From an uncultured Acidobacteriota bacterium (GTDB lineage: Bacteria > Acidobacteriota > Blastocatellia > Pyrinomonadales > Pyrinomonadaceae): a DNA stretch of 32,000 bases. Position 1 is the stretch's first letter. The number at the start of each line of letters is the position of its first letter. This document shows, piece by piece, positions 617 through 20,558 of the stretch. The notes under the pieces were generated by a model, which searched no databases, was not told the origin of the DNA, and saw nothing but the letters and a program-made list of their open reading frames with translations. Both the position numbers and the translations under genes were made by a program. The stretch is from assembly GCA_963708055.1 (NCBI GenBank), contig OY970193.1, positions 5,272,444-5,304,443 on the forward strand, written 5' to 3'.

Positions 617-3019
617 ATGATCGGGCAACTCCTCCTCCAGTATCGTATTGTCGAGAAGATCGGTGAAGGTGGACAGGGAACTGTTTACAAGGCCATCGAT
701 ACTTCGCTCGATCGTCCCGTAGTTATCAAAGTAATTCCGCCGGATCTGGCTGACAGAGCTTCGAACCTGGCCCGTTTTGAACGAGAGGCCAAGCTGGCGT
801 CATCGCTCGATCACCCAAATATCTGCACGATTTTTGGCCTGCACAAGGTCGACGACCTTCACTTCATCGCGATGCAGTATGTCGAAGGCCGCAACGTGCG
901 CCAGTTAGTCGGCGGGCAACCGCTGGATTTGCAGCGCGCGCTCTCAATCACGATCCAGGTGACTGACGCACTCGCAGCAGCGCACGGCCGCGGCATCGTT
1001 CATCGTGATATCAAAGCGCGCAACGTGATGGTGACGCGTTCCGGGTCTGTGAAAGTGCTCGATTTTGGACTCGCCAAGTTGATTGAGAGCCCGCACTCAG
1101 GTTCGAGCGATCCGCAACTCACGGAAGTCGGCGTGCCGTACGGAACCTCGACGTACGCCGCGCCCGAACAGGCGCAGGGCCTAAAAGCAGATCATCGCGC
1201 CGACATCTTTTCGACCGGCGTTCTGCTTTACGAGATGCTCGCGGGCACGTGGCCGTTTCGCGGCAAGACGGCTCTGGACGTGCGCTACGCCGTCGTTTAT
1301 CACCAGCCAAAAGCGATTGTCGAAGCGAGAGGTGAAGACTCTCCGGCCCTTCGTCGTGTTCAGGAGATTCTCGACAAAGCGCTCGCGAAAGATCCGGATG
1401 ATCGATATCAGAAGGTCGAAGACATGCGCGCCGATCTTCAGGAAGTGATGCGCGAGATTGAAATCGATAGCAGTTTCGGCAGTACTTTGACGGATGCACC
1501 AGTCGCGGCGGCTGTCAGTGAGACAAAAGCGGGATCTTTTTGGACCTCTTCGCGCGCAATCATCGCAATCGTTGCTGCATTTGCATTACTTGCCGCGATC
1601 TATTTGTTCGCTTTGCGCACGAATTCTCCGGCGGAGGCTGATTCTCCGATCAACTCGCTTGCGGTTTTGCCTTTCACCAACAGCGATCCAGGCAGCGAAT
1701 ATCTTTCTGACGGAATCACTGAGAGCCTGATCGATAGTCTGTCGCGAGTGCCGGATCTAAAAGTGAAATCCAGCACCACGGTGTTTCATTACAAAGGTCG
1801 CGAGAAAGATCCGAAGAAGATCGGGCGCGAGCTTGGTGTTCATGCGTTGCTTTCCGGCAGCGTTTCCCAGGTCGGCGATGATCTATCAGTCAGCGTGGAA
1901 TTGATTGACGTGCGCGACGATAGTCATATCTGGGGCGAACGTTACGGTCGCAAGGTTTCGGAAGTGGTGGCGTTGCCACAACAGATCTCACGCGAGGTGT
2001 CGCAAAGATTGCGCGCACGCGGCGAGAACATGGACCACGCGCAGTTAACGCGAAACTACTCGCCTGATTCGGAAGCGTATCGGCTGTATCTTCAGGGCCG
2101 CTACAACTGGAACAAAAGAACGGTTGACGGACTGAAAAACGGTATCGACTATTTCGGCAAAGCAATTCTGCGCGATCAGGATTACGCCCTTGCCTACGCC
2201 GGTCTTGCCGACTGCTATTTATTGCTCAACGTTTACAACGTGGCTTCGGCTGACGAATCTTTTCCAAAAGCCGAAGCCGCGTCGCGCAAGGCGTTATCAA
2301 TCAACGAGAGTTTGGCTGAAGCGCACACGGCTCTCGCGTTTGTCACTTATCGTTATCATCTGAAATGGACTGAAGCGGAGCAGCACTTCAAAAAAGCGAT
2401 CGCGCTCAACCCCAACTATGCAACGGCGCACCAGTGGTATGCGAGTTATCTTGCGGCCAGCGGACGATTGGAGGAGGCGGTAGTTGAAGCGAAGGCAGCG
2501 CATGAGCTAGAACCGTTTTCTTTGACGATCTACAGCGATTACATCCGCGGTTTGTATTATGCGGGCCGTCTTGACGAGGCCCGCAAGGAGTCGTTAAAAC
2601 TCATCGAAATGGATCAGAGCTTTGCGCGCGCGCGGTATGAACTGGGATTGATCCTTGAAGAGGAAGGCAAACTGGAAGAAGCGATCGTCGAATTCAAGAC
2701 GGCGGTTAAATCTTTGCCTGACAATGTTGCGGCTTTGACTGCGTTGGGCCATGCGCAGGCGGCAGCGGGAAAGAAAGCGGAGGCGGAGAAGATCATTCGC
2801 CGGCTCGAAGAACTGTCGAAACAGCAATACGTCTCGCCGTTTCAGATGGCAGTAGTTTATGCGGGGATGGACGAGCGCCGCCTCGCGCTTGATTGGTTGG
2901 AGAAGTCGCGCACCGAGCGTTTCAACTGGTTACCGTTTATAAAGGTCGATCCGGTGTTGAAAAACCTCCGCTCGGAGCCACGGTTTGTGGAGCTAGTGAA
3001 AAGTTTAAATCTGCAATAG
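617..3019 (+). CDS. Membrane-anchored Ser/Thr protein kinase with extracytoplasmic TolB-N-like module and TPR repeats
   Basis: ATG at 617, TAG at 3017-3019. Hanks kinase motifs: G-loop 'GEGGQGTVYKA', 'VVIK' Lys, 'HRDIKARNVM', 'DFG', 'APE'. One hydrophobic helix 'AIIAIVAAFALLAAIYLFAL' follows. After it come 'LAVLPFTNSDPGSEYLSDGITESLI' and several TPR-like repeats ('AYAGLADCYL', 'AHTALAFVTY', 'AHQWYASYL', 'ARYELGLILEE'). Confidence 0.95.
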   Translation: MIGQLLLQYRIVEKIGEGGQGTVYKAIDTSLDRPVVIKVIPPDLADRASNLARFEREAKLASSLDHPNICTIFGLHKVDDLHFIAMQYVEGRNVRQLVGGQPLDLQRALSITIQVTDALAAAHGRGIVHRDIKARNVMVTRSGSVKVLDFGLAKLIESPHSGSSDPQLTEVGVPYGTSTYAAPEQAQGLKADHRADIFSTGVLLYEMLAGTWPFRGKTALDVRYAVVYHQPKAIVEARGEDSPALRRVQEILDKALAKDPDDRYQKVEDMRADLQEVMREIEIDSSFGSTLTDAPVAAAVSETKAGSFWTSSRAIIAIVAAFALLAAIYLFALRTNSPAEADSPINSLAVLPFTNSDPGSEYLSDGITESLIDSLSRVPDLKVKSSTTVFHYKGREKDPKKIGRELGVHALLSGSVSQVGDDLSVSVELIDVRDDSHIWGERYGRKVSEVVALPQQISREVSQRLRARGENMDHAQLTRNYSPDSEAYRLYLQGRYNWNKRTVDGLKNGIDYFGKAILRDQDYALAYAGLADCYLLLNVYNVASADESFPKAEAASRKALSINESLAEAHTALAFVTYRYHLKWTEAEQHFKKAIALNPNYATAHQWYASYLAASGRLEEAVVEAKAAHELEPFSLTIYSDYIRGLYYAGRLDEARKESLKLIEMDQSFARARYELGLILEEEGKLEEAIVEFKTAVKSLPDNVAALTALGHAQAAAGKKAEAEKIIRRLEELSKQQYVSPFQMAVVYAGMDERRLALDWLEKSRTERFNWLPFIKVDPVLKNLRSEPRFVELVKSLNLQ

Positions 3020-4871: not shown

Positions 4872-4922
4872 GTCCACTAGATTACACAGATTAATTAGAA
4901 AAAATCTGTGTAATCCGTGGAC
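4872..4922. repeat. Palindromic 'GGATTACACAGAT' element (REP-like, possible bidirectional terminator) between convergent genes
   Basis: 'GTCCACTAGATTACACAGATT' (4872-4892) pairs with 'AATCTGTGTAATCCGTGGAC' (4903-4922). The stem is about 20 bp with one bulge, and the loop is AATTAGAAAA. No U-tract follows on either strand. It is related to the element at 20487-20558. Confidence 0.7.
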
Positions 4923-6070
4923 TACATTAATAGTGCTTCAACCCTATGGGCATGGACCATTTCTTCACATGGTGACCAGGCGAAGACCGTAAATCGTCCG
5001 TCCTGCGAAGCTACCAGCGCGAGCGCATCACGTTGATCGTGCACAAACTGGGCTGCCGAGAGATGACGCGTGCCGCCATGCTCGGTTGGTTGGACCACGA
5101 TCGGAAGATTCCCGACGACCGGTTCGGTGATCACCCATTTATCCACCGGTGGATGACCTTCGGGCCGGCGAATCTTCGCTCCAAATGCCAGCACTTCATA
5201 TCGATCGTCGATGACGGTAGCGCCATCAACGGCCGTCAGTCCGCCAATCGTATCGACCGATCGTCGCACCGCGCTTTCCCACTGCCGCCGATCTTCGGCT
5301 TCGACTTCCTGACGCAGTAATTCCGAGAGTGCTGAAAAAGCCGGAGTAATCGAGTAAAGAATGGGTTGTGCGATCGAATCGCGCCAGCTCTCGCTGCCCT
5401 TTGGGACGACCAGCAACGTTCCACCATGTCCCTGAGCCCGCATCGACGCACTCAGTTGGACCAGCATGTTGAGCGAATGATGCGGGCCATTCGTAGCCGC
5501 CGCCGTAAAAGCCAGCAGGGCTTTCAGCAACGCCGGACAATCAGGCAAACTCGTGCCTTTCTCATCAATGACTTTGACCTGTTCGCCCTTGAGTACGGCG
5601 ACGTTTGCATACTTGCCAAAACCATCCAAACGACGATGTTTGACGACGAGCAAACCCGGTTCGATATCTTCGAGCACAAAACAAAAACTCGGAATAGTTC
5701 GCGTGGCGCCCCACACTCGTAATTCTTCGCCCTGGTTCCAAACGCCGAGATGAATCTCAGGACGCTCGACCGCGGGCGCGAGTTTGGTCAGCACGGCTGC
5801 AGTCAACGGCAGTGGATGTTCAAAAAGCATCGGCTGTCGCGCTTGTTCGGGCGGCAAGTATGCGAGGGAGATTTTGGGGAACCGACCCTCCTCAGGTCGA
5901 AAGCTGGCCCAGAATGTCGCATTGATAATCGCCGCGATCGACTTTGCATCCGGTTGTGGCGCCAGACCGTCCTGGCCCAGCCGTCGCGCTTCCGCGAGGT
6001 GGCGCGCGAAGTGCGCTTCCACAAGCGGCGCGACGGTGGCGGCGGCTTGATAGGTTGGATTCGTGCTCAT
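4922..6070 (-). CDS. Uncharacterised protein with C-terminal DisA_N/DAC (diadenylate-cyclase-fold)-like domain
   Basis: ATG at 6070-6068, TAG at 4924-4922. The C-terminal third carries the ordered DAC-like motifs 'GHGGTLLVV' (cf. GALIVI), 'AVDGATVID' (DGA motif) and 'HGGTRHLSAAQ...ALALVASQDGRFTVFA' (cf. GTRHRAA...VSEETG). The N-terminal roughly 200 aa have no motif I recognise. The gene starts 3 nt after the VOC gene stop. Confidence 0.7.
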   Translation of the reverse strand: MSTNPTYQAAATVAPLVEAHFARHLAEARRLGQDGLAPQPDAKSIAAIINATFWASFRPEEGRFPKISLAYLPPEQARQPMLFEHPLPLTAAVLTKLAPAVERPEIHLGVWNQGEELRVWGATRTIPSFCFVLEDIEPGLLVVKHRRLDGFGKYANVAVLKGEQVKVIDEKGTSLPDCPALLKALLAFTAAATNGPHHSLNMLVQLSASMRAQGHGGTLLVVPKGSESWRDSIAQPILYSITPAFSALSELLRQEVEAEDRRQWESAVRRSVDTIGGLTAVDGATVIDDRYEVLAFGAKIRRPEGHPPVDKWVITEPVVGNLPIVVQPTEHGGTRHLSAAQFVHDQRDALALVASQDGRFTVFAWSPCEEMVHAHRVEALLM

Positions 6071-9454: not shown

Positions 9455-9465
9455 GTTTTTGCTTC

Positions 9466-9557
9466 TTCTCTGTGCAACCTTTGTGTTCTCTGTGTCTCTG
9501 TGGTTATGGAAATGTGCGATACAACAACCACAGAGAACACAAAGGTTGCACAGAGAA
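9466..9557. repeat. 'TCTCTGTGCAACC' palindromic element, copy 1 (29-bp perfect stem)
   Basis: 9466-9494 'TTCTCTGTGCAACCTTTGTGTTCTCTGTG' is the exact reverse complement of 9529-9557. It lies immediately upstream of the giant surface-protein gene. Its left 40 nt match copy 2 at 37 of 40 positions. Confidence 0.85.
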
Positions 9558-9605
9558 ATCCATGCCAGGGCATTACTATTTTTTAACGGACTCGGGTTTT
9601 GAAAT

Positions 9606-12086
9606 ATGCGAAAAATTTTCCTCATTGCCTTTGTCGCGCTGATCGTCACCATCGGAGCGCGAAGCAGCTTTACCTCAAATACAGCATCTCCGGCATCACC
9701 TTTTTGCACGGCCGATCCGGTCGTCAGCAATAACCTCGATAGCGGCGCCGGAAGCTTGCGCCACGCGATTGCTGATGCCTGCACCGGTTCCACGATTACC
9801 TTCAACATGGCGACGGTAACCAGTCCGATCTCTTTGACTGGCGGCGAATTGCTGATCAACAAAAATCTGATCGTCAATGGACCGGGAGCAAACTCGCTGA
9901 CCGTCCAGCGCAGTAGCGCCGGCGGTACACCTGATTTTCGAATTTTCAATATCAATGGCGGCGTCACTGTCGCGCTTTCCGGTCTCACGCTCACGAACGG
10001 TCGAATCTCCGGATCGTTCCCCGGTAACTTCGGCGGAGCGATCTGGAACAACCACAGCAATCTGACGATTACTGACTGCGTCATCAACGCTAACTCAGCC
10101 GTTGCAGTTGCGCCGGCAGGTTTCGGCGGCGCGATCTTTAACGACGGTGCGGATTTCGGAAGCGCCACACTCGCAATCGTAAACACTCGGATCACCGGCA
10201 ACAGTGCGACTGGTAATGGCGGTGGCATTTTCAGTTGGGGTGGTCATGGCAACGCGACTCTCACGATCACCGCAAGCACCATCAGTAACAACTCAGCGCA
10301 GTCCGGTGGCGGAGGCATTGCGAATTCGGGACAGTCTGGTAGTTCGTCGGTGCGGATCGTTAATTCACTGCTAAGCGGCAACACTGCGCAGAGCGGCGGC
10401 GGAATCACCAGCGAAGGAACCCAAAACGGCAACGCTCCACTGACAATTGCCAATAGCACCATCAGTGGAAATGGCGCGACAGCAATCGGCGGCGGCATCG
10501 TCACCCAGGGCACGACGAACAGTAGCGGCGCCCCAGTCACCATCGTCAACACCACCATCACGAATAATCGTGTTGACATCGACGACACTGCACCGGGCAA
10601 TCAGAACGGCGGCGGGATGTTTATCTTTACCGGCCCGGTCACGATTCACAATACGATTGTTGCTCGCAACTTCGTCGGCAGCACCGGGATCCTTCCGGAC
10701 GATGTTTTTAATAACAGCTTCCAACCGAATAGTTCATTTAATTTGATTGGCATCGGCGGGTCAGGCGGGCTTGTTAATGATGTCAACGGCAATATCGTAC
10801 ACGCCGACCCGAATCTTGGACCACTCGCCGACAATGGTGGACCAACACAAACGCATGCGCTGCTTCCGGGTAGTCGGGCGATTGAAGGCGGCAGCAACTG
10901 CCCGCTCGATGATTCATGCTCTCCGGCGCTTGGTTTCTCGCTTGCAACCGATCAACGCGGTGCCGGGTTCCAGCGGGCGGCGGATTCGTCCGACCTCAAC
11001 GTCACGCAGACAGTTGATATTGGCGCGTTTGAAGCACGTGCCAGCATCGAAGACATCGTCGATCAGACAATTCCGGAAGATGGACTTTTGGTGGCGCATT
11101 TTGGGGTTGGCGACCCGGCGGCAGTTACGAGTGTTACGGCGACGTCAAGCAATACAGTGCTTTTTCCCAACGAGCCGGCAAACCTCGACGTGATTGGAAG
11201 CGGTCAATTTCGGACAGTAGTAGGAATGCCGTTTCAGAATCAGTTTGGCTCGACGTTGATAACCGTTACGGTTACCAGTGGATCGGAGAGTGTCACGGAC
11301 ACATTTTTAGTAACCGTGACACCTGTGAACGACGCTCCGCACGAAGTTTTACTCTCAAACACGAGTGTGAATGACAACAGTCCCGCGGGCACTCTCGTAG
11401 GCACTCTGACTGCTCTAGATCCTGATCCGTTGCAAACATTCACTTACAGTCTGGTTTCCGGTTTTAATTCCATCGACAATGCATCCTTCACTATCTCCGG
11501 AGATCAACTCAGAACCACTTCGGTTTTTGATTTCGAAACTAAAACAAGTTACCTGATCCGCCTGCGCGCCACTGATCCGACCAATTTGCATGTGGAGAAG
11601 GAGTTCATCATCAACGTGGTCGATGGACCGGATATTCCGGGTGCGATCTCGTTTACGTCCCCAACGTTCAGCGTCGGAGAAGCTGACGGCAATGCGAGCA
11701 TTACTTTGAGGCGCACTGGCGGGGCTGACAATCGAGTGTTTGCGAAAGTCAGTTTGGCGGATATTACGACCTCGCCGGCGGATTATCGGTTTGCGCCCGG
11801 ATCTCTCGATCCCACCTTCAACACCGGCACCGGAGCGACTTCAGGATCGAGTGCGCTCTCGCAGGTGGTTCATGCGGTGGCGGTGCAGCCTGATGGAAAA
11901 GTGCTGATTGGCGGTGCGTTTCTCTTCTACGACGGTATCCCGCGCAAACGTATGGCGCGGCTTAACTCCGACGGCACTTTGGATCATTCGTTTAATCCGA
12001 GCTTCGAAGACGTTGTGTTGAGCATCGCGTTACAACCCGATGGAAAGATCCTCGTTGGCGGCGAGTTTATTGGCCTTGACCTTTGA
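9606..12086 (+). CDS. Giant secreted surface/adhesin-like protein, N-terminal 826-aa fragment (frame-split)
   Basis: Signal-like N-terminus 'MRKIFLIAFVALIVTIGA'. CSLREA-type motif 'GSLRHAIADA'. At least 7 'GGAI/GGGI' parallel beta-helix (PMP-like) repeats. 'LGPLADNGGPTQTHALLPGS' is choice-of-anchor-Q-like. A cadherin-like domain ('VNDAPHEV...FDFETKTSYLIRLRATD') and a Calx-beta-like domain ('FSVGEADGNASITLRR') follow. The first two delta-60-type repeats ('VQPDGKVLIGG', 'LQPDGKILVGG') are present. The ORF ends at TGA 12084-12086 in the middle of a repeat. Confidence 0.9.
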   Translation: MRKIFLIAFVALIVTIGARSSFTSNTASPASPFCTADPVVSNNLDSGAGSLRHAIADACTGSTITFNMATVTSPISLTGGELLINKNLIVNGPGANSLTVQRSSAGGTPDFRIFNINGGVTVALSGLTLTNGRISGSFPGNFGGAIWNNHSNLTITDCVINANSAVAVAPAGFGGAIFNDGADFGSATLAIVNTRITGNSATGNGGGIFSWGGHGNATLTITASTISNNSAQSGGGGIANSGQSGSSSVRIVNSLLSGNTAQSGGGITSEGTQNGNAPLTIANSTISGNGATAIGGGIVTQGTTNSSGAPVTIVNTTITNNRVDIDDTAPGNQNGGGMFIFTGPVTIHNTIVARNFVGSTGILPDDVFNNSFQPNSSFNLIGIGGSGGLVNDVNGNIVHADPNLGPLADNGGPTQTHALLPGSRAIEGGSNCPLDDSCSPALGFSLATDQRGAGFQRAADSSDLNVTQTVDIGAFEARASIEDIVDQTIPEDGLLVAHFGVGDPAAVTSVTATSSNTVLFPNEPANLDVIGSGQFRTVVGMPFQNQFGSTLITVTVTSGSESVTDTFLVTVTPVNDAPHEVLLSNTSVNDNSPAGTLVGTLTALDPDPLQTFTYSLVSGFNSIDNASFTISGDQLRTTSVFDFETKTSYLIRLRATDPTNLHVEKEFIINVVDGPDIPGAISFTSPTFSVGEADGNASITLRRTGGADNRVFAKVSLADITTSPADYRFAPGSLDPTFNTGTGATSGSSALSQVVHAVAVQPDGKVLIGGAFLFYDGIPRKRMARLNSDGTLDHSFNPSFEDVVLSIALQPDGKILVGGEFIGLDL

Positions 12087-14394
12087 GACCGGGCGAAACC
12101 GTATTGCGCGTCTGAACGCCGATGGTTCTCTTGACCAGACGTTCAACCCCAACACTCCCAACGACTCGGTGACGTCCATCGCGGTCCAGCCGGACGGAAA
12201 AATCTTGCTCGGTGGAGCATTCACCCACCTCGACGGTTTTCCCCGAAGGGGTGTAGCGCGACTCAATGTCGCAGGCGATCTCGACGATAATTCCTTTGAT
12301 CCCGGTGTTGGCGCAAATGCGGGTGTTACTAGTCTTGTTTTGCAACCCGACGGAAAGATTCTCGTTGGCGGCGGCTTCACGAGCTTTGCCGGAGCTTCAG
12401 ACACGCGGCTCGTACGTCTCAACAGCAACGGAACGGTTGACGGTACGTTCAACTCCGCCTTAGGCCTTAGTCTCGCACCACGCCAGGTGGTCTTGCAGCC
12501 GGACGGAAAAATTCTGGTTGGCGGTGAGTGGGTGGGTACTGACACGCCGTTTGGAAATCGTGGGATAGCGCGACTTGAAAGCAATGGCGCGCCTGACGCG
12601 ACGTTTAATCCGGGCACAGGGACCAACGGCCAAACAGTGGACGCACTCGCGCTTCAGCCTGATTCGCGAATTGTGATTGTCGGTCGCTTCCCAAGTTTTA
12701 ACGGAACGACTGTCAACGGCGTTGCACGTTTGCATAGCAGCGGCTCACCTGACACTTCCTTCAATTCCGGTGGCGGAGTGAATCTACCGTTCCCGGCGTT
12801 TGAAGTTGTCGTGCAACCGGATGGCAAGATCCTGCTTGGCGGGCAATACACTTTCTACGATGGCGTCAGCAGTAATGGCATCACACGCATCAATGGCGAT
12901 CTGTTTGTAAGTTGGGCGCCGGGTGATTCGGCAAACAAGACAGTGCTCTTGCCAATCGTCAACGACGCGTTAGACGAACCGAACGAAACACTCTCGCTTC
13001 AGGTCACGCCCATTTCCGTTGGCGCCACCGCGGGTACACCCGCCAGTTCGACGTTGACGATCGTTGATAACGATCCATCACCAACTACTCTCTCCTCAGT
13101 GTCCGGAGTCGGTATCTTCGGGGGCACAGCGACATTGATGGCGACGCTTACGTCCAATGGCGTGAACCTGAGCGGCAAGTCGATAACGTTCACACGCAAT
13201 GGAACTACGGTTGGTAGTGCAACCACCGCTGCAAATGGAATTGCAACTCTAACCGGCGTCAGTTTGGCGGGTATCAATAGCGGCATCTATGACTCTGCCA
13301 TTGGCGCCAGCTTCACTGGCGACGGTGTCGACTTTGCGAGTAGTAATGGAACTGGACCATTAACCGTAACTAAAGCGACATCGACTACGACCGTGACATC
13401 GTCCGTGAATCCCTCGGACCTCGGTCAAATGGTGACGTTCACCGCGACGGTCACGAGTACCGGCGGTACCCCGACAGGAACGGTCCAATTCAGAAACAAT
13501 GGCGCAGTGTTCGGGTCGCCTGAGCCGTTGACCGCAGGAGTGGCGACAATAAATACCTTGATACTTCCCGCAGGTACACACGCGATCACAGCCGACTACA
13601 GTGGCGATAACAACTTCATCGTGAGCAGCGGAACGCTCTCGGGTGGACAAGTAGTGAAAGCGCCGTCAATCTCGATCAACGATGTCTCAATCGTCGAGCC
13701 CAATATTTTTACCACTAGCGTTTTCCTGGAAGTGAGTCTTTCCGCTCCCAGTGCCGTGAACGTGAGTGTCAACTTCGCCACCGCTGACGGCTCAGCGACA
13801 ATCGCTGACAACGACTATATCGCCACGTCCGGAACGTTGAATTTCAGCCCCGGTCAGACAGTCAAGACCATCAGCGTCGCGATTACCGGCGACGAGAAGT
13901 TTGAAACTCACGAGACGGTGCTCGTTAATCTCACCAATCCAGTCAATGCCATCGTTACCGACGGCCAGGGAGTGGTAACGGTTTTCAATGGCGATCTTCT
14001 GACGTTGTTTCTTGATGAGTCAGGCCCGGCAACAAATCAGGTGGCGGCGGTTGATTCATTCCTGTTGGTTAGAGATCCGTTCCACGTTCAGTCAATCGCA
14101 AATTGGCTGCCGAATCTCGGCCCGGATCGCAACACGAGAGTGACGATCTTTGCTCAGCATCTCGAGTGGCTTGATCCTATATTTCTGCCATCGAGTGCGG
14201 TGGTGAGTTTGGTTGATGCTAACGGTCAAGCGCATGAAGTGACGGCTGAAGCTGTTCGCTCACTGCCTGGGGTGAACGCGGTTGCGCAAATAACGTTCAG
14301 GTTACCTGACAACCTTGCGCCCGGAGTTTGCAGTGTCACGCTCAAAACGCAGGGCAGAACCAGCAACACCGGATCGATGCGCATCGCGCCTTAA
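12040..14394 (+). CDS. Giant surface/adhesin-like protein, C-terminal fragment (continuation in +1 frame; real continuation from about 12085)
   Basis: It has no signal peptide or translation-start context of its own. It continues the delta-60 repeats with 5 more 'xQPDGKILxGG' units at a period of about 153-158 nt. Next come an Ig-like domain ('TTTVTSSVNPSDLGQMVTFTATV...GTHAITADYSGDNNF') and a Calx-beta domain ('VNFATADGSATIADNDYIATSGTLNFSPGQTVKTISV'). The C-terminal Ig-like domain is reminiscent, from memory, of the Solibacter-type C-terminal domain. Confidence 0.85.
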   Translation: MERSSLAASLLALTFETGRNRIARLNADGSLDQTFNPNTPNDSVTSIAVQPDGKILLGGAFTHLDGFPRRGVARLNVAGDLDDNSFDPGVGANAGVTSLVLQPDGKILVGGGFTSFAGASDTRLVRLNSNGTVDGTFNSALGLSLAPRQVVLQPDGKILVGGEWVGTDTPFGNRGIARLESNGAPDATFNPGTGTNGQTVDALALQPDSRIVIVGRFPSFNGTTVNGVARLHSSGSPDTSFNSGGGVNLPFPAFEVVVQPDGKILLGGQYTFYDGVSSNGITRINGDLFVSWAPGDSANKTVLLPIVNDALDEPNETLSLQVTPISVGATAGTPASSTLTIVDNDPSPTTLSSVSGVGIFGGTATLMATLTSNGVNLSGKSITFTRNGTTVGSATTAANGIATLTGVSLAGINSGIYDSAIGASFTGDGVDFASSNGTGPLTVTKATSTTTVTSSVNPSDLGQMVTFTATVTSTGGTPTGTVQFRNNGAVFGSPEPLTAGVATINTLILPAGTHAITADYSGDNNFIVSSGTLSGGQVVKAPSISINDVSIVEPNIFTTSVFLEVSLSAPSAVNVSVNFATADGSATIADNDYIATSGTLNFSPGQTVKTISVAITGDEKFETHETVLVNLTNPVNAIVTDGQGVVTVFNGDLLTLFLDESGPATNQVAAVDSFLLVRDPFHVQSIANWLPNLGPDRNTRVTIFAQHLEWLDPIFLPSSAVVSLVDANGQAHEVTAEAVRSLPGVNAVAQITFRLPDNLAPGVCSVTLKTQGRTSNTGSMRIAP

Positions 14395-14418
14395 CCAGAG
14401 TAGTGCCTTAGTTCAACT

Positions 14419-14500
14419 GCTTCTCTGTGCAACCTTCGTGTGCTCTGTCTCTCTGTGGTTGTTGCACCGCATTCTATAACTACAGGTTGCACAGAGAAGC
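14419..14500. repeat. 'TCTCTGTGCAACC' palindromic element, copy 2 (17-bp perfect stem)
   Basis: 14419-14435 'GCTTCTCTGTGCAACCT' is the exact reverse complement of 14484-14500. It has the same orientation as copy 1. It lies 25 nt after the adhesin stop and about 70 nt before the SIR2 operon. Confidence 0.85.
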
Positions 14501-14511
14501 CAAAATAGGTC

Positions 14512-14540
14512 TTGTTAAATCCGGGTGAAATCCTGATAAT
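14512..14540 (+). promoter_or_regulatory. Candidate sigma70-like promoter of the SIR2/STAND operon (TTGTTA-N17-GATAAT)
   Basis: 'TTGTTA' at 14512-14517 and 'GATAAT' at 14535-14540 have exactly 17-nt spacing, about 30 nt upstream of ATG 14570. This is a pattern match only. The promoter consensus of this lineage is not known to me. Confidence 0.2.
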
Positions 14541-14569
14541 CCCGTGTCGTCTTTATTGACAGATCCTCT

Positions 14570-15472
14570 ATGTCGCAACTTTTGTCTCACGAAGACTGGG
14601 ATGTTCTTCTCAGAAGAATTGCCAAACAAAAGTGCACGCCGTTTCTCGGCGCCGGCGCTTGCTACGGAGTGCTGCCTCTTGGCGGTGAAATAGCCAAACA
14701 GTGGGCTGAGAAGTACGACTACCCGATGGAGGATCGTTCAAACCTCATCGCCGTGTCGCAGTTTCTGGCGTTGAAATACTCTGACGCGGTCTTTCCAAAA
14801 GACCTGATTGTCGAGATGTTTGAAGGTTTCGGATCACCGGATTTCACCGATAAACTCGAACCGCATCGCGTGTTGTCGAGAATGAATCTGCCGGTTTATG
14901 TGACCACCAACTACGACGACTTCATGGTCAAGGCGCTCGCTGACAATCATCGACAGCCAAATCGTATCCTTTGCCAGTGGAACCAGGCGGTGAAGGATTA
15001 CGTCCGTGATAATCCCACCGTTCTCGAAAAGGATCCGGAGTACAAACCCACGGTTGCGAATCCGGTCGTCTTTCATCTCCACGGCCACGTTCCGGTGGCT
15101 GATTCGCTGGTGTTGACTGAAGACGACTACATGGATTTTTTAGTGAACACCTCGAAAGATCCGAATCTGATTCCGGCGCCGGTTTCCCGCGCTCTATCGG
15201 GAACGTCACTGCTGTTTATCGGCTATCGAATCACCGACTGGAATTTCCGCGTCTTGTTGCGCAGCTTCGAAAGGTTTATGGAGCCATCGCTTTCGCGCCT
15301 CAACGTCGCCGTGATGCCGCCACCCGCAGGCTCGGAAGAAGCGAAACAGAAATCACAGGATTACCTGACTAAGTATTACGCGAACATCGACGTGCGCGTT
15401 TACTGGGGAACCGCCAGAGAGTTTGTTAAGGAACTGTGGGAGCGTTGGGAACAATCCGGTAATGCGAAATGA
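14570..15472 (+). CDS. SIR2_2-family (SIR2-like NADase/deacetylase fold) protein, paralogue A, catalytic motifs intact
   Basis: ATG at 14570. Motifs: 'CTPFLGAGAC' (NAD-binding GAG loop), 'VYVTTNYDDFM' (Asn114, nt 14909-14911), 'VVFHLHGH' (His171, nt 15080-15082), 'LVLTEDDYMDF', 'LLFIGYRITDWNFRVLL'. It aligns along its full length with the next gene. Confidence 0.9.
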   Translation: MSQLLSHEDWDVLLRRIAKQKCTPFLGAGACYGVLPLGGEIAKQWAEKYDYPMEDRSNLIAVSQFLALKYSDAVFPKDLIVEMFEGFGSPDFTDKLEPHRVLSRMNLPVYVTTNYDDFMVKALADNHRQPNRILCQWNQAVKDYVRDNPTVLEKDPEYKPTVANPVVFHLHGHVPVADSLVLTEDDYMDFLVNTSKDPNLIPAPVSRALSGTSLLFIGYRITDWNFRVLLRSFERFMEPSLSRLNVAVMPPPAGSEEAKQKSQDYLTKYYANIDVRVYWGTAREFVKELWERWEQSGNAK

Positions 15473-15499
15473 TGGCCGCGTTACTCGTGCGAGGTAACC

Positions 15500-16396
15500 A
15501 TGGGCGTCAAGAGGATCGAAGGCACTGACTGGGAGGTGTTGTTAAGACGGATCAAGGACGGTCGCTGTACACCGTTTCTCGGCGCCGGAGTTTACTCTCA
15601 AGGTCCAACTCTCCGAACTACCATCGCTAAAAACTGGTCAACGCAATACAACTATCCGTTTACCGACGGAACCGACCTGGCGCGTGTCGCCCGCTTCCTC
15701 ACCGTTGAATACGGCGATGCGGAGATCGCTTCAAGCAAGTACATCGAAGAGTTGGCCAAAGTTCCCGCGCCGAACTTTGACGATCCAAATGATCCGTATT
15801 CGATTCTCGCGAAGTTGCCGCTGCCGGTTTACATTACTACCAACTACGACGACCTGATGGAACAAGCGTTGGCGAAGCAGCACAAGGATGCGAAGCGCGA
15901 TCTGTGCAAGTGGATCAAATCACTCGAAGAGCCATCACCTCTCATCGAACAGCAATTTCAACCGAATGTGGCTAATCCGATCGTCTTTCATCTTTACGGA
16001 ATCACGCAGAATCAACAGTCGATGGTGCTGTCAGAAGACGATTATTTTCAGTTCCTGATCAACGTCTCCAACGATCCGGAGATGATACCCAAGCGCATTC
16101 AGCAGGCAATCACCGGAACCTCGTTGATTTTGCTGGGCTACAGTTTGGAAGACTGGGACTTCCGCATTCTGTTTCACTTTCTCGCCGGCTATTTGAAGAA
16201 AAGCACCAGCAAGACCCACGTGGCTGTGCAACTTTCACCATCAACCACTGACGCTGACGTCAAACAACGCGCCCAGGCATTCTTTGATAAATACTTCGAA
16301 TCAAAAAGCCCCGACATACGCGTAAGTTGGGAAACCACCCAGGACTTTGTTCTCAAGCTAAGAGACAACTGGAACAACTCTGGCTATGCAAAGTAA
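15500..16396 (+). CDS. SIR2_2-family protein, paralogue B, catalytic His replaced by Tyr
   Basis: ATG at 15500 with GAGG 6 nt upstream. Motifs: 'CTPFLGAGVY', 'VYITTNYDDLM', 'IVFHLYGI' (Tyr166, TAC at 15995-15997, where paralogue A has His), 'MVLSEDDYFQF', 'LILLGYSLEDWDFRILF'. It shares the C-terminal tail 'W..SG(N/Y)AK' with paralogue A. Confidence 0.9.
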   Translation: MGVKRIEGTDWEVLLRRIKDGRCTPFLGAGVYSQGPTLRTTIAKNWSTQYNYPFTDGTDLARVARFLTVEYGDAEIASSKYIEELAKVPAPNFDDPNDPYSILAKLPLPVYITTNYDDLMEQALAKQHKDAKRDLCKWIKSLEEPSPLIEQQFQPNVANPIVFHLYGITQNQQSMVLSEDDYFQFLINVSNDPEMIPKRIQQAITGTSLILLGYSLEDWDFRILFHFLAGYLKKSTSKTHVAVQLSPSTTDADVKQRAQAFFDKYFESKSPDIRVSWETTQDFVLKLRDNWNNSGYAK

Positions 16397-19300
16397 TCCG
16401 CAGGATAACCAGGCCAATTCAGTAGCGCCGTACGTTGGACCAAGGTCTTTCCAAAGGGAACAACGGGAGTTTTTCTTTGGTCGCGACGAAGAGGCCGATG
16501 AGTTGGTGTCGATCATAACGGCGCACTCGGCGGTGCTGCTGTATTCACAGTCAGGGGCCGGCAAGTCGTCGCTTTTGAATGCGAAATTGATTCCGAAGTT
16601 GGAGGAAGAAGAAAACTTCAACATCCTGCCGACGATGCGTGTGCAAGGCCAGATTCCGCCGTCGGTAAAGGTGGACAAAACTGCAAACATCTTTGTCACT
16701 AATGCCCTCTTCAGTTGCGGTGAGTTTGATCCCGCCAAAGTAAAAAACGGGATAACGTTTGCCGAGTTTCTGAAGAATGCGGTTGAGCGGACCAATGAGT
16801 ACGGCGAACCATGCCCAACCGTTTTGGTCTTCGATCAGTTTGAAGAACTCTTTACCTCGTATCCGGGACACTGGGCCGATCGCGAAGACTTCTTCAGGCA
16901 GATAGGGGAAGCGATCGAAGGAAACCCGAAGAAGGGTTTGCCGGGTAATCCACTACTGCGCGTTCTCTTTTCCATGCGCGAGGATTACATCGCCGAGCTC
17001 GATCCTTATCTCTCGTTACTGCCCGACAAGTTGCGCAGTCGATTTCGCCTGGAACACCTGCGAGAGAAAAAAGCTCTCGTGGCGATCACCGAACCGCTGA
17101 AAAAGACGAATCGTTCCTTCGCTCCCAACGTGGCGGAGCAGTTGGTTAAGAACCTGCTGAGAACTCCGAGTCAGAGTTTGACGGGATCGCAGACCATGGG
17201 ACTCTTCATTGAGGGGGTTCAACTGCAAGTGGTCTGTCAGAGCTTGTGGGAGGCGCTTGGTCCAACTGAGACGGTCATCACTGCGAAACATCTCCAGAAG
17301 TATGGCGACGTGAGCCAGGCGTTGTCACACTTCTATGAAAGATCGGTGGCCACTGTTGCTAAAGAAACCGGTGTAAAAGAAGAAATCCTGCGACGCTGGT
17401 TTGCAGACACATTGATCACTCCCGAAGGCACGCGCGCGCCGGTCAATCGGGGAACCGATCAAACCGGCGGCATGTCCAATGCCGTGGTCGACAAGCTCGA
17501 AACGATGCACCTGATCAAAGGCGAGTGGAAAGGCACCAACGTTCGCTGGTACGAACTCGCGCACGATCGCTTTATCGAACCGATCCGCAGGTCCAATGAC
17601 ACGTGGCTCGCCAATCAATCTCGAGGAGAGCAGGTCCGTCTCCGACTCGAAGACAAAGCTGCCAAGTGGAAACCGGGAACCAAAGTGCTCAGCGCGGACG
17701 AACTACTCGAGGCTCGTAACCTGGTAAACGACAATATGGCCAGCCCTTCGTTACGCGCCCTCGTAGATGCAAGTCGTGCCGGTGCCACCAGAAAGCGAAT
17801 TAAATTGCTTACCTTCGTGGCCGTCGTTTGTGGTGCTGCACTTTTGGTCTTCATGGCCCTTGCCTACTTTGCGTACACGCAAAGAAATTTTGCCAAGTCG
17901 CGCTTTTTAGCAGTGAAGGCCAGCATGTTGCTGGCTTCCGATCCGGAGCTGAGCGTGCTGCTGGCGAAGGAAGCCATCGATGAGTATTCGGATACCGCAG
18001 ACGCGCGAAATGTGATCCGCAGTGGTCTGCTGTCGTTATCAAACGTTGGGGCCGCCTTTCCTCAAGGCGAGAAGGTAGCCGGCGCGGAATTCAGTCGTGA
18101 TGGCAAGTTCATTCTAACGCGCACAGTTGATGGAGGCGTGAAGTTGTGGGAGGTTGCGGGCAAGCGTTTGGTCAAAGAACTTCTTCCCGGTCAGGGTGGA
18201 AACTCCGCCACTTTTAGTCCTGACGGTAAATTCTTTGTCACTGCCGGCCAGGACGGTGTAGCCCGACTTTGGGGTGGCACCAACGCGGCGTTCGTGCGCG
18301 AGTTTCGAGGTCATACTGCAACTCTCAGCAGCGCGATCTTCAGTCCCGACGGGAAACATCTCGTAACGGGTGGTGAAGATATGTCTGTGCGTGTTTGGGA
18401 TGTTGCCGGCGGTGCGCAAACAAAGCTACTCGAAGGTCACGAGGGCGCCGTGCAGAAAATTGTTTTCAGCACGGACAATGTTCATTTCGCTACCGAAGCC
18501 GGGGACGGTCGGGGATTCATCTGGAATCTGAATAGCGATCAAGGCAAGGAGGTTAAAGGACTGACTGGCTCAGCACCGGCACTCGCATTTAGTCCCGATG
18601 GGAAACTTCTGGCCACCGAAGGTGGACCAGGCACCGAGAACGGCGAACTATCTGAACGCGGTTATCCAACGACGGTTTGGGATGTGGCAACCGGAACGCC
18701 GAAATTCATTCTTGATGGTCATCAGGAATTCATTACCGGGGTTAATTTTAGTCCTGACGGGAATGTGATCGTCACGAGCAGCGCCGATAACAGCGCGCGT
18801 CTATGGACGTCAGACGGGCAGCTCGTTACAGAATTGATTGGCCACTCAGGACCACTCTCCGGTGCGTTTTTCAGTCCTGATGGCAAATACGTCGTTACGA
18901 CCAGCGCCGACAACACGGCGCGCGTTTGGGATTCACTCGATGGCCGGCTGGTCACCAGGCTCGGCGGCCATTCCCAGGCAATCAACACTGCGGCGTTCAG
19001 TGCCGATGGGCAATTTCTCGTTACCGGGAGCGACGATCAAACAATACGCGTGTGGCCCTTTAATCCTCGCGACGGTTCGATGGTCGAATCCTGGGAGCAC
19101 ACCGCCGCAGTCACAAGCATTGCGTGTAGTCCTGACGGTACTGACGTTGCCGCCACAACTCGTGATGGAAAACTGTGGCTGGAAGGCATAGGCATGCAAC
19201 GGACAATTCCGTTCCAGTATTTGATCGACCAAACAGTGCCGGTTAGTAGTGCCAAGTTTAGTCCTGATGGACAATTCATCGCGACTTCCATCGGGAACGA

Positions 19301-20147
19301 AGGAGCCGTTTACCGCATTGAGGAATTGCGTCAGTTTGTGGATGGGGTGCGTTCGGAATTTCTTTACGCGGAAGCGCAGGGACCGTCGGCAAGAAAACAG
19401 AATTTTGAGAATCCTCAGGGCGTGAGACTCGCAGGTCATAGTGCCGCTGTGAATGGCCTGGCTTTCAGTCCTGATGGCACTCAGATCGTGACGGCGAGTG
19501 CGGATTCGACGGCGCGAGTTTGGAATGCCTCTGATGGGAAAACTATCGGCGAACTTCGCGGTCATAGTGCCAGTCTAAATACAGCGGTCTTTAGTCCTGA
19601 CGGGAGATTTATTGTCACCGCCGGCGACGACAAGACGGTGCGTTTGTGGGATGCAAAGAGTTTCTCGTTTGTGAGAATGATTGGAGAAACGCAGGAGCAG
19701 CCGGTATCGAGTGCGTCGTACAGTCCGGATGGACGGCTGATCGTAACGACAAGCGCGGAAACGGCCTGGTTGTGTGACGCGGAGACCGGTGCGGTCAAGA
19801 AAAAACTGGAAGGCCATACGGGCTCGGTGAATAGCGCATCGTTCAGTCCCGACTCGCGCCTGGTGGTAACTGCGAGCTCTGACAACACGGCGCGCGTGTG
19901 GGACGCGCAAACCGGGGATAGTATCGCTAGTCTGTTGGACCATAAGGGCCCAGTTCTCAATGCGCTGTTTAGCCCGGATGGAAAGTCGGTGGTTACAGCA
20001 AGCGAAGATTACGCAACCCGCATCTATCCACGTGAGGCATTCGCGCCTTTTGAAGAATTACGGGAATTGATCAAGCAGCGCGTGGCCAGGGAATTGACGG
20101 ACAAGGAACGAAGAGATTATCTGAGAGACCCTGAGACGTTCTTTTAA
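16386..20147 (+). CDS. STAND-type P-loop NTPase (nSTAND1-like) with central hydrophobic helix and about 15 C-terminal WD40 repeats
   Basis: The ATG at 16386 overlaps the upstream stop by 11 nt (ATGCAAAGTAA). Motifs: 'PYVGPRSFQREQREFFFGRDEE', Walker A 'SQSGAGKSS' (nt about 16545-16571), Walker B 'VLVFDQFEELF' (Asp150 at 16833-16835). The hydrophobic segment is 'LLTFVAVVCGAALLVFMALAYFAY' (nt about 17806-17877). About 15 'FSPDGK..VT.S.D.TARVWD' WD40 units span about 18060-19990, enough for two propellers. Confidence 0.92.
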   Translation: MQSNPQDNQANSVAPYVGPRSFQREQREFFFGRDEEADELVSIITAHSAVLLYSQSGAGKSSLLNAKLIPKLEEEENFNILPTMRVQGQIPPSVKVDKTANIFVTNALFSCGEFDPAKVKNGITFAEFLKNAVERTNEYGEPCPTVLVFDQFEELFTSYPGHWADREDFFRQIGEAIEGNPKKGLPGNPLLRVLFSMREDYIAELDPYLSLLPDKLRSRFRLEHLREKKALVAITEPLKKTNRSFAPNVAEQLVKNLLRTPSQSLTGSQTMGLFIEGVQLQVVCQSLWEALGPTETVITAKHLQKYGDVSQALSHFYERSVATVAKETGVKEEILRRWFADTLITPEGTRAPVNRGTDQTGGMSNAVVDKLETMHLIKGEWKGTNVRWYELAHDRFIEPIRRSNDTWLANQSRGEQVRLRLEDKAAKWKPGTKVLSADELLEARNLVNDNMASPSLRALVDASRAGATRKRIKLLTFVAVVCGAALLVFMALAYFAYTQRNFAKSRFLAVKASMLLASDPELSVLLAKEAIDEYSDTADARNVIRSGLLSLSNVGAAFPQGEKVAGAEFSRDGKFILTRTVDGGVKLWEVAGKRLVKELLPGQGGNSATFSPDGKFFVTAGQDGVARLWGGTNAAFVREFRGHTATLSSAIFSPDGKHLVTGGEDMSVRVWDVAGGAQTKLLEGHEGAVQKIVFSTDNVHFATEAGDGRGFIWNLNSDQGKEVKGLTGSAPALAFSPDGKLLATEGGPGTENGELSERGYPTTVWDVATGTPKFILDGHQEFITGVNFSPDGNVIVTSSADNSARLWTSDGQLVTELIGHSGPLSGAFFSPDGKYVVTTSADNTARVWDSLDGRLVTRLGGHSQAINTAAFSADGQFLVTGSDDQTIRVWPFNPRDGSMVESWEHTAAVTSIACSPDGTDVAATTRDGKLWLEGIGMQRTIPFQYLIDQTVPVSSAKFSPDGQFIATSIGNEGAVYRIEELRQFVDGVRSEFLYAEAQGPSARKQNFENPQGVRLAGHSAAVNGLAFSPDGTQIVTASADSTARVWNASDGKTIGELRGHSASLNTAVFSPDGRFIVTAGDDKTVRLWDAKSFSFVRMIGETQEQPVSSASYSPDGRLIVTTSAETAWLCDAETGAVKKKLEGHTGSVNSASFSPDSRLVVTASSDNTARVWDAQTGDSIASLLDHKGPVLNALFSPDGKSVVTASEDYATRIYPREAFAPFEELRELIKQRVARELTDKERRDYLRDPETFF

Positions 20148-20153
20148 GGGGCA

Positions 20154-20486
20154 ATGGTGATGATAAAAGCTTTATTGACATTCTGCCTGATTGCTTGCTT
20201 CGCGATCGGGTCGCCGGCCGCAATGCAGGATAAAGGCGCGCAAAATAAGGCGCCACAACCACAACAGCCCAGCAAGGGCGATCCGGCCGTCCGGGTGTGG
20301 GTCGACACGCAATTCGGTTTTTATCACTGTCCCAACACCAAGCTTTACGGCAAGACCAAACAAGGCGTCTACATGACGCAGAAGCAAGCCCAGGACCGCG
20401 GCTATCGCCCCGCTTACAGTACCGTCTGCATCGCACCACCACCTCCCAAAGTCGCGCCTAAAGCTAAAGCACCAGTCAAGAAATAA
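20154..20486 (+). CDS. Small exported protein or lipoprotein, Cys-containing conserved C-terminal module
   Basis: It starts 6 nt after the NTPase stop; the alternative ATG 20160 is better spaced from AAGGGG. The hydrophobic N-terminus 'IKALLTFCLIACFAIGSPAA' has a lipobox-like 'LIAC'. A Pro/Gln-rich linker follows, then 'VWVDTQFGFYHCPNTKLYGKTKQGVYMTQKQAQDRGYRPA'. Confidence 0.65.
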   Translation: MVMIKALLTFCLIACFAIGSPAAMQDKGAQNKAPQPQQPSKGDPAVRVWVDTQFGFYHCPNTKLYGKTKQGVYMTQKQAQDRGYRPAYSTVCIAPPPPKVAPKAKAPVKK

Positions 20487-20558
20487 GCCACAGATCACAC
20501 GGATTACACAGATCAGAAAAATCATTTCTGATCCGTGTTCATCCGTTTTATCCGTGGC
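20487..20558. terminator. Imperfect palindrome of 'CACAGAT/CACGGAT' units between convergent genes; likely terminator for rodA (minus strand)
   Basis: The left arm 20487-20519 pairs with the right arm 20525-20558, with about 27 of 33 positions paired, 5 mismatches and 1 bulge. It abuts both stop codons (TAA 20484-20486 on the plus strand, TAG 20560-20558 on the minus strand). On the minus-strand transcript the stem is followed by UUAUUUCUU. Confidence 0.6.

Follow-up and report, generated by a model that had tools for sequence, protein, structure and literature searches.

SIR2 genes paired with an nSTAND1 NTPase that carries a predicted membrane helix: a candidate conflict module in the Pyrinomonadaceae, with relatives in many phyla

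The present work concerns a stretch of 32,000 nucleotides (nt) from an uncultured soil bacterium of the Pyrinomonadaceae (Acidobacteriota; contig OY970193.1), hereafter the window, and within it an operon in which two genes of the SIR2 family, SIR2-A and SIR2-B, stand directly before a gene (gene 3) whose product combines a STAND nucleoside triphosphatase (NTPase) of the nSTAND1 family, one predicted transmembrane (TM) helix and about 15 WD40 blades, with a small fourth gene behind them. Our proposal is that a STAND receptor spanning the membrane forms the basis of this locus, which would act as a conflict (immune-type) module; this reading, taken together with the mechanism described below, we consider to have about an even chance of being correct. 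The module is a member of a large, widespread and apparently uncharacterised family. The operon is more than a chance arrangement, because the order SIR2 followed by nSTAND1 recurs in every related locus examined, and comparison of these loci shows that in many phyla a SIR2_2 gene comes obligately with an nSTAND1 gene, the two usually overlapping.

A profile of SIR2-A relatives scanned over one genome per species yielded 509 loci, and among the best 80, analysed together with four loci fetched earlier, an nSTAND1 gene lay directly downstream of the SIR2 gene or genes, on the same strand, in 84/84. When the search was made by the NTPase instead, a SIR2-family open reading frame (ORF) was found directly upstream of nSTAND1 in 73 of the 75 metagenome loci with sufficient upstream sequence; of the remaining two loci, one had a SIR2 ORF at 454 nt from the nSTAND1 gene. 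The SIR2/NTPase junction was overlapping in 97/149 loci and within -23 to +19 nt in 138/149, values that were measured from the start codon nearest the stop and are thus biased toward small gaps, and the commonest junction (35/149 loci) was an overlap of 11 nt. The hosts of the 509 loci, as given by record titles, include members of the Acidobacteriota, Chloroflexota, Planctomycetota, Verrucomicrobiota, Actinomycetota, Desulfobacterota, Thermotogota, Bipolaricaulota and Bacteroidota-type lineages, and also the archaeon Methanoperedens; when 1.84 billion representative proteins were searched with a SIR2 profile, 1695 clusters had E <= 1e-30. A first-pass annotation of this DNA had described sensor and effector as separate polypeptides, and the SIR2-nSTAND1 order kept in related loci shows that they make up a co-conserved module. 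The co-conservation of SIR2-SIR2-STAND triplets, for which that annotation proposed a test, holds for the pair of SIR2 and nSTAND1, but the triplet itself is a monophyletic subset, most related systems having a single SIR2 with intact active-site residues.

In the window, the four genes are tightly packed on the + strand: SIR2-A at 14570-15472 (300 amino acids, aa), SIR2-B at 15500-16396 (298 aa), gene 3 at 16386-20147 (1253 aa) and gene 4 at 20154-20486 (110 aa). In public gene calls the lengths agree for genes 1 to 3, and gene 4 has 108 aa and starts at 20160. The two SIR2 genes are separated by a spacer of 27 nt (15473-15499) with GAGG at 15491-15494; the stop of SIR2-B and the start of the NTPase gene share an 11-nt overlap, ATGCAAAGTAA (16386-16396), which suggests translational coupling of SIR2-B and the NTPase; and 6 nt (20148-20153) lie between genes 3 and 4. 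These coordinates and junctions (27, -11 and 6 nt) are as had been claimed.

The nSTAND1 module of gene 3 covers residues 15-429 (16428-17672, + strand) and matches Pfam PF20703 with 149.4 bits, against a cut-off of 27.1. Its Walker A motif is SGAGKSS at residues 56-62, including K60, its Walker B motif is DQFEE at residues 150-154, and both GAGKS, with its K60, and DQFEE show no variation among 51 homologues. Only 14 residues precede the nSTAND1 match and residues 1-15 are predicted to be disordered, as expected from the earlier statement that the NTPase carries no fused effector. A search of PDB by sequence with the NTPase gave nothing at E <= 1, and Foldseek with the NTPase model found generic AAA+/ORC/Cdc6 folds only (TM-score <= 0.34), none of them a close solved structure.

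Directly after the NTPase module comes the sole strongly hydrophobic stretch of gene 3, LLTFVAVVCGAALLVFMALAYFAYT (residues 474-498; 17805-17879, + strand; Kyte-Doolittle 2.73 over 19 residues), which is predicted to be a single TM helix, and in an AlphaFold2 model of residues 1-520, with a pLDDT (predicted local distance difference test) value of 86.9, a continuous helix extends over residues 454-517. One equivalent hydrophobic helix is present at the same position in 59/62 full-length homologues, as well as in most of the metagenome set, and the 3/62 homologues without it have TPR repeats directly after the NTPase. Lysine and arginine residues flanking the helix average 5.6 on the NTPase side versus 3.1 on the C-terminal side, the NTPase side being richer in 54/59 (Wilcoxon p 1.7e-10), so that gene 3 shows both sequence features of a single-pass N-in, C-out protein, namely the hydrophobic helix and the positive-inside bias. 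Because this conserved single helix follows the positive-inside rule, the WD40 array is probably extracytoplasmic, most simply periplasmic, with the NTPase probably in the cytoplasm. The Avs-like cytosolic sensor proposed in the first-pass annotation is difficult to reconcile with this helix between the NTPase and the WD40 array, which had been overlooked.

The WD40 beta-propeller array (18066-20039, + strand), presumed to be the extracytoplasmic sensor, has a Pfam score of 364 bits, and 12 clear blade-end motifs, together with their spacing, are compatible with about 15 blades; NCBIfam gave only sub-threshold propeller matches for gene 3. The description of gene 3 as a STAND P-loop core followed by about 15 WD40 repeats is therefore supported by the nSTAND1 and WD40 matches and by the blade motifs. 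The blades are old and diverged, because no tandem DNA repeats were found in the operon. In relatives, the WD40 region is replaced by C-terminal TPR, FGE-sulfatase, Peptidase_M4_C, PDZ, PD40, LamG or discoidin (F5/8-C) domains, several of which are of kinds typical of exported proteins.

Both SIR2 proteins have about 300 aa, with little beyond the SIR2-like fold, and both score as SIR2_2 in Pfam (PF13289; gathering threshold 24.5 bits), SIR2-A with 91.9 bits (E 5e-26) and SIR2-B with 91.1 bits (E 9e-26), which, along with the motifs FLGAG, TTNYDD, HLHG/HLYG and GY..DW.FR, bears out their description as SIR2_2 paralogues. They are 41% identical (BLASTP), and NCBIfam had no match for either of them or for gene 4. 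The active site of SIR2-A is complete, with GAG at residues 27-29, Asn114 in the TTNYDD motif (14903-14920, + strand) and His171 in the HLHG motif (15074-15085, + strand), and it therefore has the Asn and His of a SIR2-type nicotinamide adenine dinucleotide (NAD+) hydrolase, or NADase. In SIR2-B, GAG and Asn115 are kept, but the catalytic His is replaced by Tyr166 (HLYG, 15989-16000, + strand), leaving the Asn and His pair broken. Mutants at this His are recorded in PDB under the names DSR2(H171A) and KomC(H146N). The AlphaFold2 model of SIR2-A (pLDDT 84.5) has as its nearest folds the SIR2 domains of ThsA, KomC and DSR2, and the SIR2-A profile matches ThsA in PDB with E 1e-17. These solved matches all come from entries of defence proteins, those of ThsA and KomC being helical assemblies.

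The difference between the two copies extends beyond the window. First SIR2 copies keep Asn and His in 81/81 aligned related loci, and second copies have lost Asn and/or His in 23/30, with Tyr or Phe in place of His, and Gly, Ala, Asp, His or Thr in place of Asn, depending on the lineage. Wherever a degenerate copy occurs, it is the one adjoining the NTPase gene. In a neighbour-joining tree no second copy is placed among the first copies, those first copies that come from two-SIR2 systems group in a single subclade, and the A and B sub-trees mirror each other, which points to one old SIR2 duplication followed by co-divergence with a faster-evolving B copy. SIR2-A is thus presumed to be the NADase effector. 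SIR2-B is missing the catalytic His, and loss of catalytic residues has happened repeatedly among its counterparts in relatives, for which reasons it resembles a pseudoenzyme or adaptor and is presumed to be a catalytically dead adaptor or regulatory subunit; the notion that the effector is simply duplicated does not survive these observations.

An adaptor role is also suggested by distant relatives, in which the protein just upstream of the NTPase has 470-890 aa, with a SIR2_2 domain at the C-terminus preceded by an N-terminal extension. According to Pfam, the extensions of nine such proteins contain CHAT, TIR, TIR+CHAT, EAD8+TIR or trypsin domains (EAD, effector-associated domain). In the metagenome loci, 29/29 of the N-extended SIR2 domains had lost Asn and/or His, versus 20 degenerate and 32 intact among the short standalone SIR2 proteins (Fisher p 6e-9). 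In an independent sample, made up of the 150 best clusters of the representative protein library, 21/29 N-extended and 21/122 standalone domains were degenerate (odds ratio 12.6, Fisher p 2e-8); the initial generalisation from the 29/29, that every N-extended SIR2 is degenerate, was accordingly weakened to 21/29, and two trypsin fusions keep both catalytic residues. The fusions of CHAT, TIR or trypsin effectors with a degenerate SIR2 are found in loci without other SIR2 ORF. A separate upstream gene, encoding either CHAT-FGE-sulfatase or EAD7-FGE-sulfatase, was present in three checked loci with a short degenerate SIR2, none of which has another SIR2 upstream of that NTPase gene. The recurring order is effector, degenerate SIR2 fold and nSTAND1-TM-sensor, with an active SIR2 in the effector slot of our operon, and the simplest reading of this pattern is that the degenerate SIR2 fold would be a constant docking module between effector and NTPase. 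Moreover, since a close nSTAND1 relative (55% identity over the NTPase) has a TIR domain at its own N-terminus, a NADase-type domain does occupy the effector position in this NTPase family.

Other arrangements of these domains were also encountered. Seven proteins of the representative library (P0371, P0397, P0411, P0425, P0474, P0470 and P0511) are single polypeptides of 900-1055 aa; the layout typified by P0371 has an N-terminal nSTAND1, a long helical middle and a C-terminal SIR2_2 with Tyr or Trp at the catalytic His, so that the STAND protein itself bears a degenerate SIR2, Pfam domains having been scanned for the first five of the seven. In locus L116 (1960-11251), two successive modules of degenerate SIR2 and nSTAND1, the second with a WD40 sensor, come after a gene for CHAT-FGE-sulfatase. 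Locus L085 (1149-6825) has an active SIR2, then an nSTAND1 with a C-terminal SIR2 fusion (P0164), another SIR2 and a second nSTAND1 gene; P0164 was considered as a Rosetta-stone fusion, but it has no membrane helix and no sensor and may represent two tandem modules joined by deletion, and little weight was given to it. A second, much more distant pair of SIR2 and STAND-WD40 genes lies at most 10 kb from the main module in L021 (899-5721) and L023 (5715-9334), and the metagenome-assembled genomes MFD09206.bin.1.124, SMAG_U11057 and E26_bin7 have two modules on separate contigs. In L009 (11803-15511), and also in L025 and L069, the NTPase-WD40 gene is fragmented into many short ORFs, which could be explained by pseudogenisation or by indel errors of assembly.

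In the Pyrinomonadaceae the module has a DUF218 gene on one side and the convergent rodA-mrdA-mreDCB operon on the other; at this site genomes with equally similar flanks (rodA 90-94% and mrdA 80-85% identity) hold either a WD40 or a TPR allele. Identities in genomes with the WD40 allele are 79-84% for SIR2-A, 78-88% for SIR2-B, 74-79% for the NTPase and 59-65% for the WD40 sensor, which even in these close relatives is the least conserved domain; for the TPR allele, in which TPR replaces WD40, they are 60-61% for SIR2-A, 48-50% for SIR2-B and 49-52% for the NTPase. Because the flanks are equally similar while the versions of the module diverge, two old alleles occupy one locus, with the sensor as the fastest-changing part. 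Some genomes have several modules with differing sensors. The swaps of effectors and sensors among relatives and the allelic replacement are signs of evolution of the conflict type. In the TPR allele of locus L001 a DUF433/DUF5615 toxin-antitoxin-like pair (14074-14606) lies between the module and rodA, and a single DUF433 gene (2658-2876) is found at the module-rodA site of L169, next to a gene 4 homologue.

STAND or NLR-like sensors with NAD+-depleting effectors are an established form of bacterial immunity, and the parts described above would be compatible with such a function. The NTPase would be in the cytoplasm and the WD40 array in the periplasm, and binding of a ligand outside would lead to ATP-dependent oligomerisation of the NTPase on the inner membrane face. 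The degenerate SIR2-B, made in step with the NTPase, would dock on it and would then nucleate or scaffold the active SIR2-A through SIR2-SIR2 contacts, and the assembled SIR2 would hydrolyse NAD+, with growth arrest or cell death as the outcome. In two-gene relatives one active SIR2 would do both jobs, and in other relatives the degenerate SIR2 would carry a CHAT protease, TIR or trypsin effector instead. More tentatively, and as a reading that we would sooner doubt than endorse, the module may have a topology like that of Toll-like receptors, in which an outside sensor is joined by one TM helix to a STAND NTPase and, through a dead-SIR2 adaptor reused across phyla, to a death effector; as parts of this single joint reading, the hypervariable repeat sensor would meet a phage, predator, toxin or foreign cell before or at the crossing of the envelope, and the dead SIR2 fold would plug in SIR2, CHAT, TIR or trypsin.

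Several points weigh against the proposal of an immune receptor with a dead adaptor. To our knowledge, the characterised phage sensors are all cytoplasmic, all characterised examples of STAND proteins with NADases sense their trigger inside the cell, and an outside-facing STAND defence sensor is without tested precedent; the topology assigned here is based on hydropathy and charge bias only. That the change of His to Tyr is inactivating in SIR2-B is assumed by analogy with the H171A and H146N mutants, and, with both Asn and His kept in 7/30 second copies and in 8/29 N-extended SIR2 domains, degeneracy is best taken as a strong trend and not as a rule. A scan of viral contigs found no relatives of the module, the window has no other recognisable defence gene, and the module is stably placed beside rodA-mrdA-mreDCB. 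SIR2-B, which through its GAG loop and Asn115 may still bind a nucleotide such as NAD+, might be a regulatory partner and not an adaptor, forming a mixed filament or heterodimer with SIR2-A and switching it on or holding it off, perhaps with NAD+ or a derivative of ADP-ribose as its ligand. The second copies with both catalytic residues would suit such a role, as would the vertebrate SIR2_2 paralogues FAM118A and FAM118B, which are weak alone, interact, and process NAD well only together (PMC12700824). We nevertheless regard it as unlikely, given that many second copies have lost the GAG loop or the Asn, and that docking fits better with a degenerate SIR2 fused to CHAT, TIR or trypsin where there is no other SIR2 ORF for it to regulate.

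A different function altogether would be outside-in signalling about the envelope or the environment, with SIR2 deacylating or ADP-ribosylating specific targets instead of depleting NAD+. The probably extracytoplasmic sensor, the stable chromosomal position by a rod-shape operon in the Pyrinomonadaceae and the lack of a surrounding defence island are all consistent with it, and the biochemical activity of this SIR2 clade is only predicted. The linkage to rodA, however, is seen in one family only and involves convergent genes, which are not co-transcribed; the swapping of CHAT, TIR and trypsin, the allelic replacement and the multiple copies with different sensors in one genome are hallmarks of conflict systems; and all of the closest solved SIR2 domains belong to defence NADases, for which reasons a signalling role seems to us distinctly improbable. 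Hardly any credence is left for the version of the first-pass annotation, a cytosolic split system resembling Avs5, with two equivalent SIR2 effectors and the exported protein as the fourth core part. It accounts for four co-oriented, closely spaced genes and for SIR2 being the effector domain of Avs5, but not for a conserved TM helix with positive-inside bias, a degenerate SIR2-B, an NTPase without a STAND or Avs match in PADLOC, or a fourth gene that occurs only in the closest relatives and is missing from the TPR allele. If the membrane-receptor proposal is right and the sensor does lie beyond the membrane, it would become possible to test directly for extracellular pattern recognition by bacteria. 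The pseudo-sirtuin would likewise join death-fold, TIR and EAD adaptors as a new kind of adaptor, which would explain the adjoining pair of SIR2 genes and offer a parallel to the vertebrate FAM118A/B.

The product of gene 4 has a signal peptide, a Pro-rich linker, an invariant core of 45 aa with two Cys, and a basic tail. It has 208 homologues of 92-110 aa, unnamed and without a Pfam domain, and in Pfam gene 4 itself gave a sub-threshold OCRE match only. The homologues that were looked up or were present in fetched loci come directly after a WD40-type NTPase gene, beside rodA, apart from two contigs in which the upstream gene is cut off or unannotated. Neither the TPR allele at this site nor any other lineage examined has gene 4, so the small exported protein, earlier counted as part of the operon core, is better described as a lineage-specific accessory of the WD40 allele, confined to one lineage of the Pyrinomonadaceae. 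Its product presumably shares the periplasm with the WD40 array, and could be a co-receptor or a negative regulator. In five unrelated loci (L026, L031, L032, L035 and L061), a gene located 3-64 nt after the NTPase gene encodes a protein of 134-540 aa that starts like a signal peptide and is not a gene 4 homologue, which may reflect chance or a loose tendency to place a gene for an exported protein there.

The surroundings of the operon are those of an ordinary chromosomal region, as judged from ten other window proteins scanned with Pfam. Among the window ORFs covered by the Pfam scans or by synteny matches there is no integrase or transposase, and the window has neither a tRNA nor an Rfam family, in line with the earlier remark that no integrase, transposase or tRNA flanks the operon; promoter-like and terminator-like sites are not commoner than in shuffled sequence. 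The palindromes resembling repetitive extragenic palindromic (REP) elements that had been reported to bracket the operon do exist, one at 14419-14500 upstream of it, with perfect 17-nt arms (14419-14435 and 14484-14500), and a nested group at 20487-20558, between gene 4 and the convergent rodA, with imperfect arms at 20498-20556. As borders of an island they were rejected, because both are members of repeat families with further copies in the window: the element at 14419-14500 has a second copy at 9464-9559, and the other family (CACGGAT...) occurs at 4904 and at 20489-20556, so that they are generic intergenic repeats.

Immediately upstream of the first palindrome, two large ORFs, 9606-12086 and 12040-14394, overlap but are read in different frames; the same DUF5122 beta-propeller repeats run on from one into the other, and cadherin, Big_3_5 and Calx-beta domains are also present, which looks like one gene for a surface protein of about 1600 aa split by a frameshift. 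The 9606-14394 segment is absent from the relative L006, where a YceI gene abuts SIR2-A directly, and the REP-like copies at 9464-9559 and 14419-14500, which bracket the segment missing in relatives, suggest a site of insertion or recombination. Farther upstream are a Ser/Thr protein kinase-TPR fusion (617-3019, + strand) and a protein with a DACNV sensor domain (4922-6070, - strand), and a DACNV gene is found upstream of the module in L001 also.

Regarding known systems, the PADLOC and Pfam checks that had been proposed were run: PADLOC v2 has no model that spans the operon and gave partial SIR2 matches only, with a sole match of gene 3 to HEAT-ARM_XIII, on the WD40 region, and none to a STAND or Avs model, and Pfam scored both small ORFs as SIR2_2 and gene 3 as nSTAND1 and WD40. 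In the literature searched, which was incomplete, such that an earlier description elsewhere is possible, there was no system of SIR2 with nSTAND1-TM and no pseudo-SIR2 adaptor. Avs5 (AVAST type 5), which has SIR2 as its effector domain (PMC11897194), resembles our module in combining a SIR2 effector, a STAND NTPase and a variable C-terminal sensor, with presumed oligomerisation. However, Avs5 is one polypeptide, and here SIR2 is encoded by separate genes, in two copies, and the NTPase is an nSTAND1 without a PADLOC Avs match and with a TM helix between it and the sensor.

Among SIR2 systems, Thoeris includes, in ThsA, the nearest solved relative of SIR2-A (E 1e-17, TM-score 0.70-0.74), with the catalytic Asn and His aligned. 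Unlike in Thoeris, no TIR protein (ThsB) was found among the four proteins or the ten other scanned window proteins, there is no SLOG or Macro ligand domain, the ThsA models of PADLOC matching the SIR2 part only, and activation would be via the STAND NTPase and not via a cyclic ADP-ribose signal as in ThsA. DSR2 and the KomC protein of Kongming share the SIR2_2-type fold and are, similarly, defence NADases controlled through their assembly state, although neither has a STAND partner or a membrane-spanning sensor; in DSR1/DSR2 the SIR2 domain is fused to a long sensor (about 1000 aa), compared with whole proteins of about 300 aa here, and KomC acts with KomB and a nucleotide signal.

The STAND systems coupled by EADs (PMC7159879, PMC8195603) also use the nSTAND1 family, named by Kaur et al. 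2021 (PMC8195603), with variable effectors and variable repeat or FGE sensors, and in them too effectors are encoded in trans and linked by a constant adaptor, the relatives of our module even carrying EAD7 and EAD8. Nevertheless, the constant adaptor here seems to be a degenerate SIR2 and not a described EAD, and the same EAD was not found on both effector and NTPase, as our proteins have no EAD match in Pfam and the EAD8 and EAD7 of relatives are on the effector side only. SIR2 is nowhere mentioned by Kaur et al. 2020 (PMC7159879), and in the 2021 article it is present only as one effector of an unrelated system. A precedent for the putative sensing of periplasmic or intramembrane signals by STAND proteins is found in the NACHT proteins with TM regions, for which it was proposed by Kibby et al. 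(10.1101/2022.07.19.500537), even though these belong to another NTPase family, are described with multiple TM regions and have no SIR2 partner. Finally, although FAM118A and FAM118B are eukaryotic and nuclear, have no STAND partner and were both studied as enzymes, they share with SIR2-A and SIR2-B the pairing of two SIR2_2 paralogues; in our module an interaction and joint activation of the two may be reflected in the co-divergence of the A and B trees.

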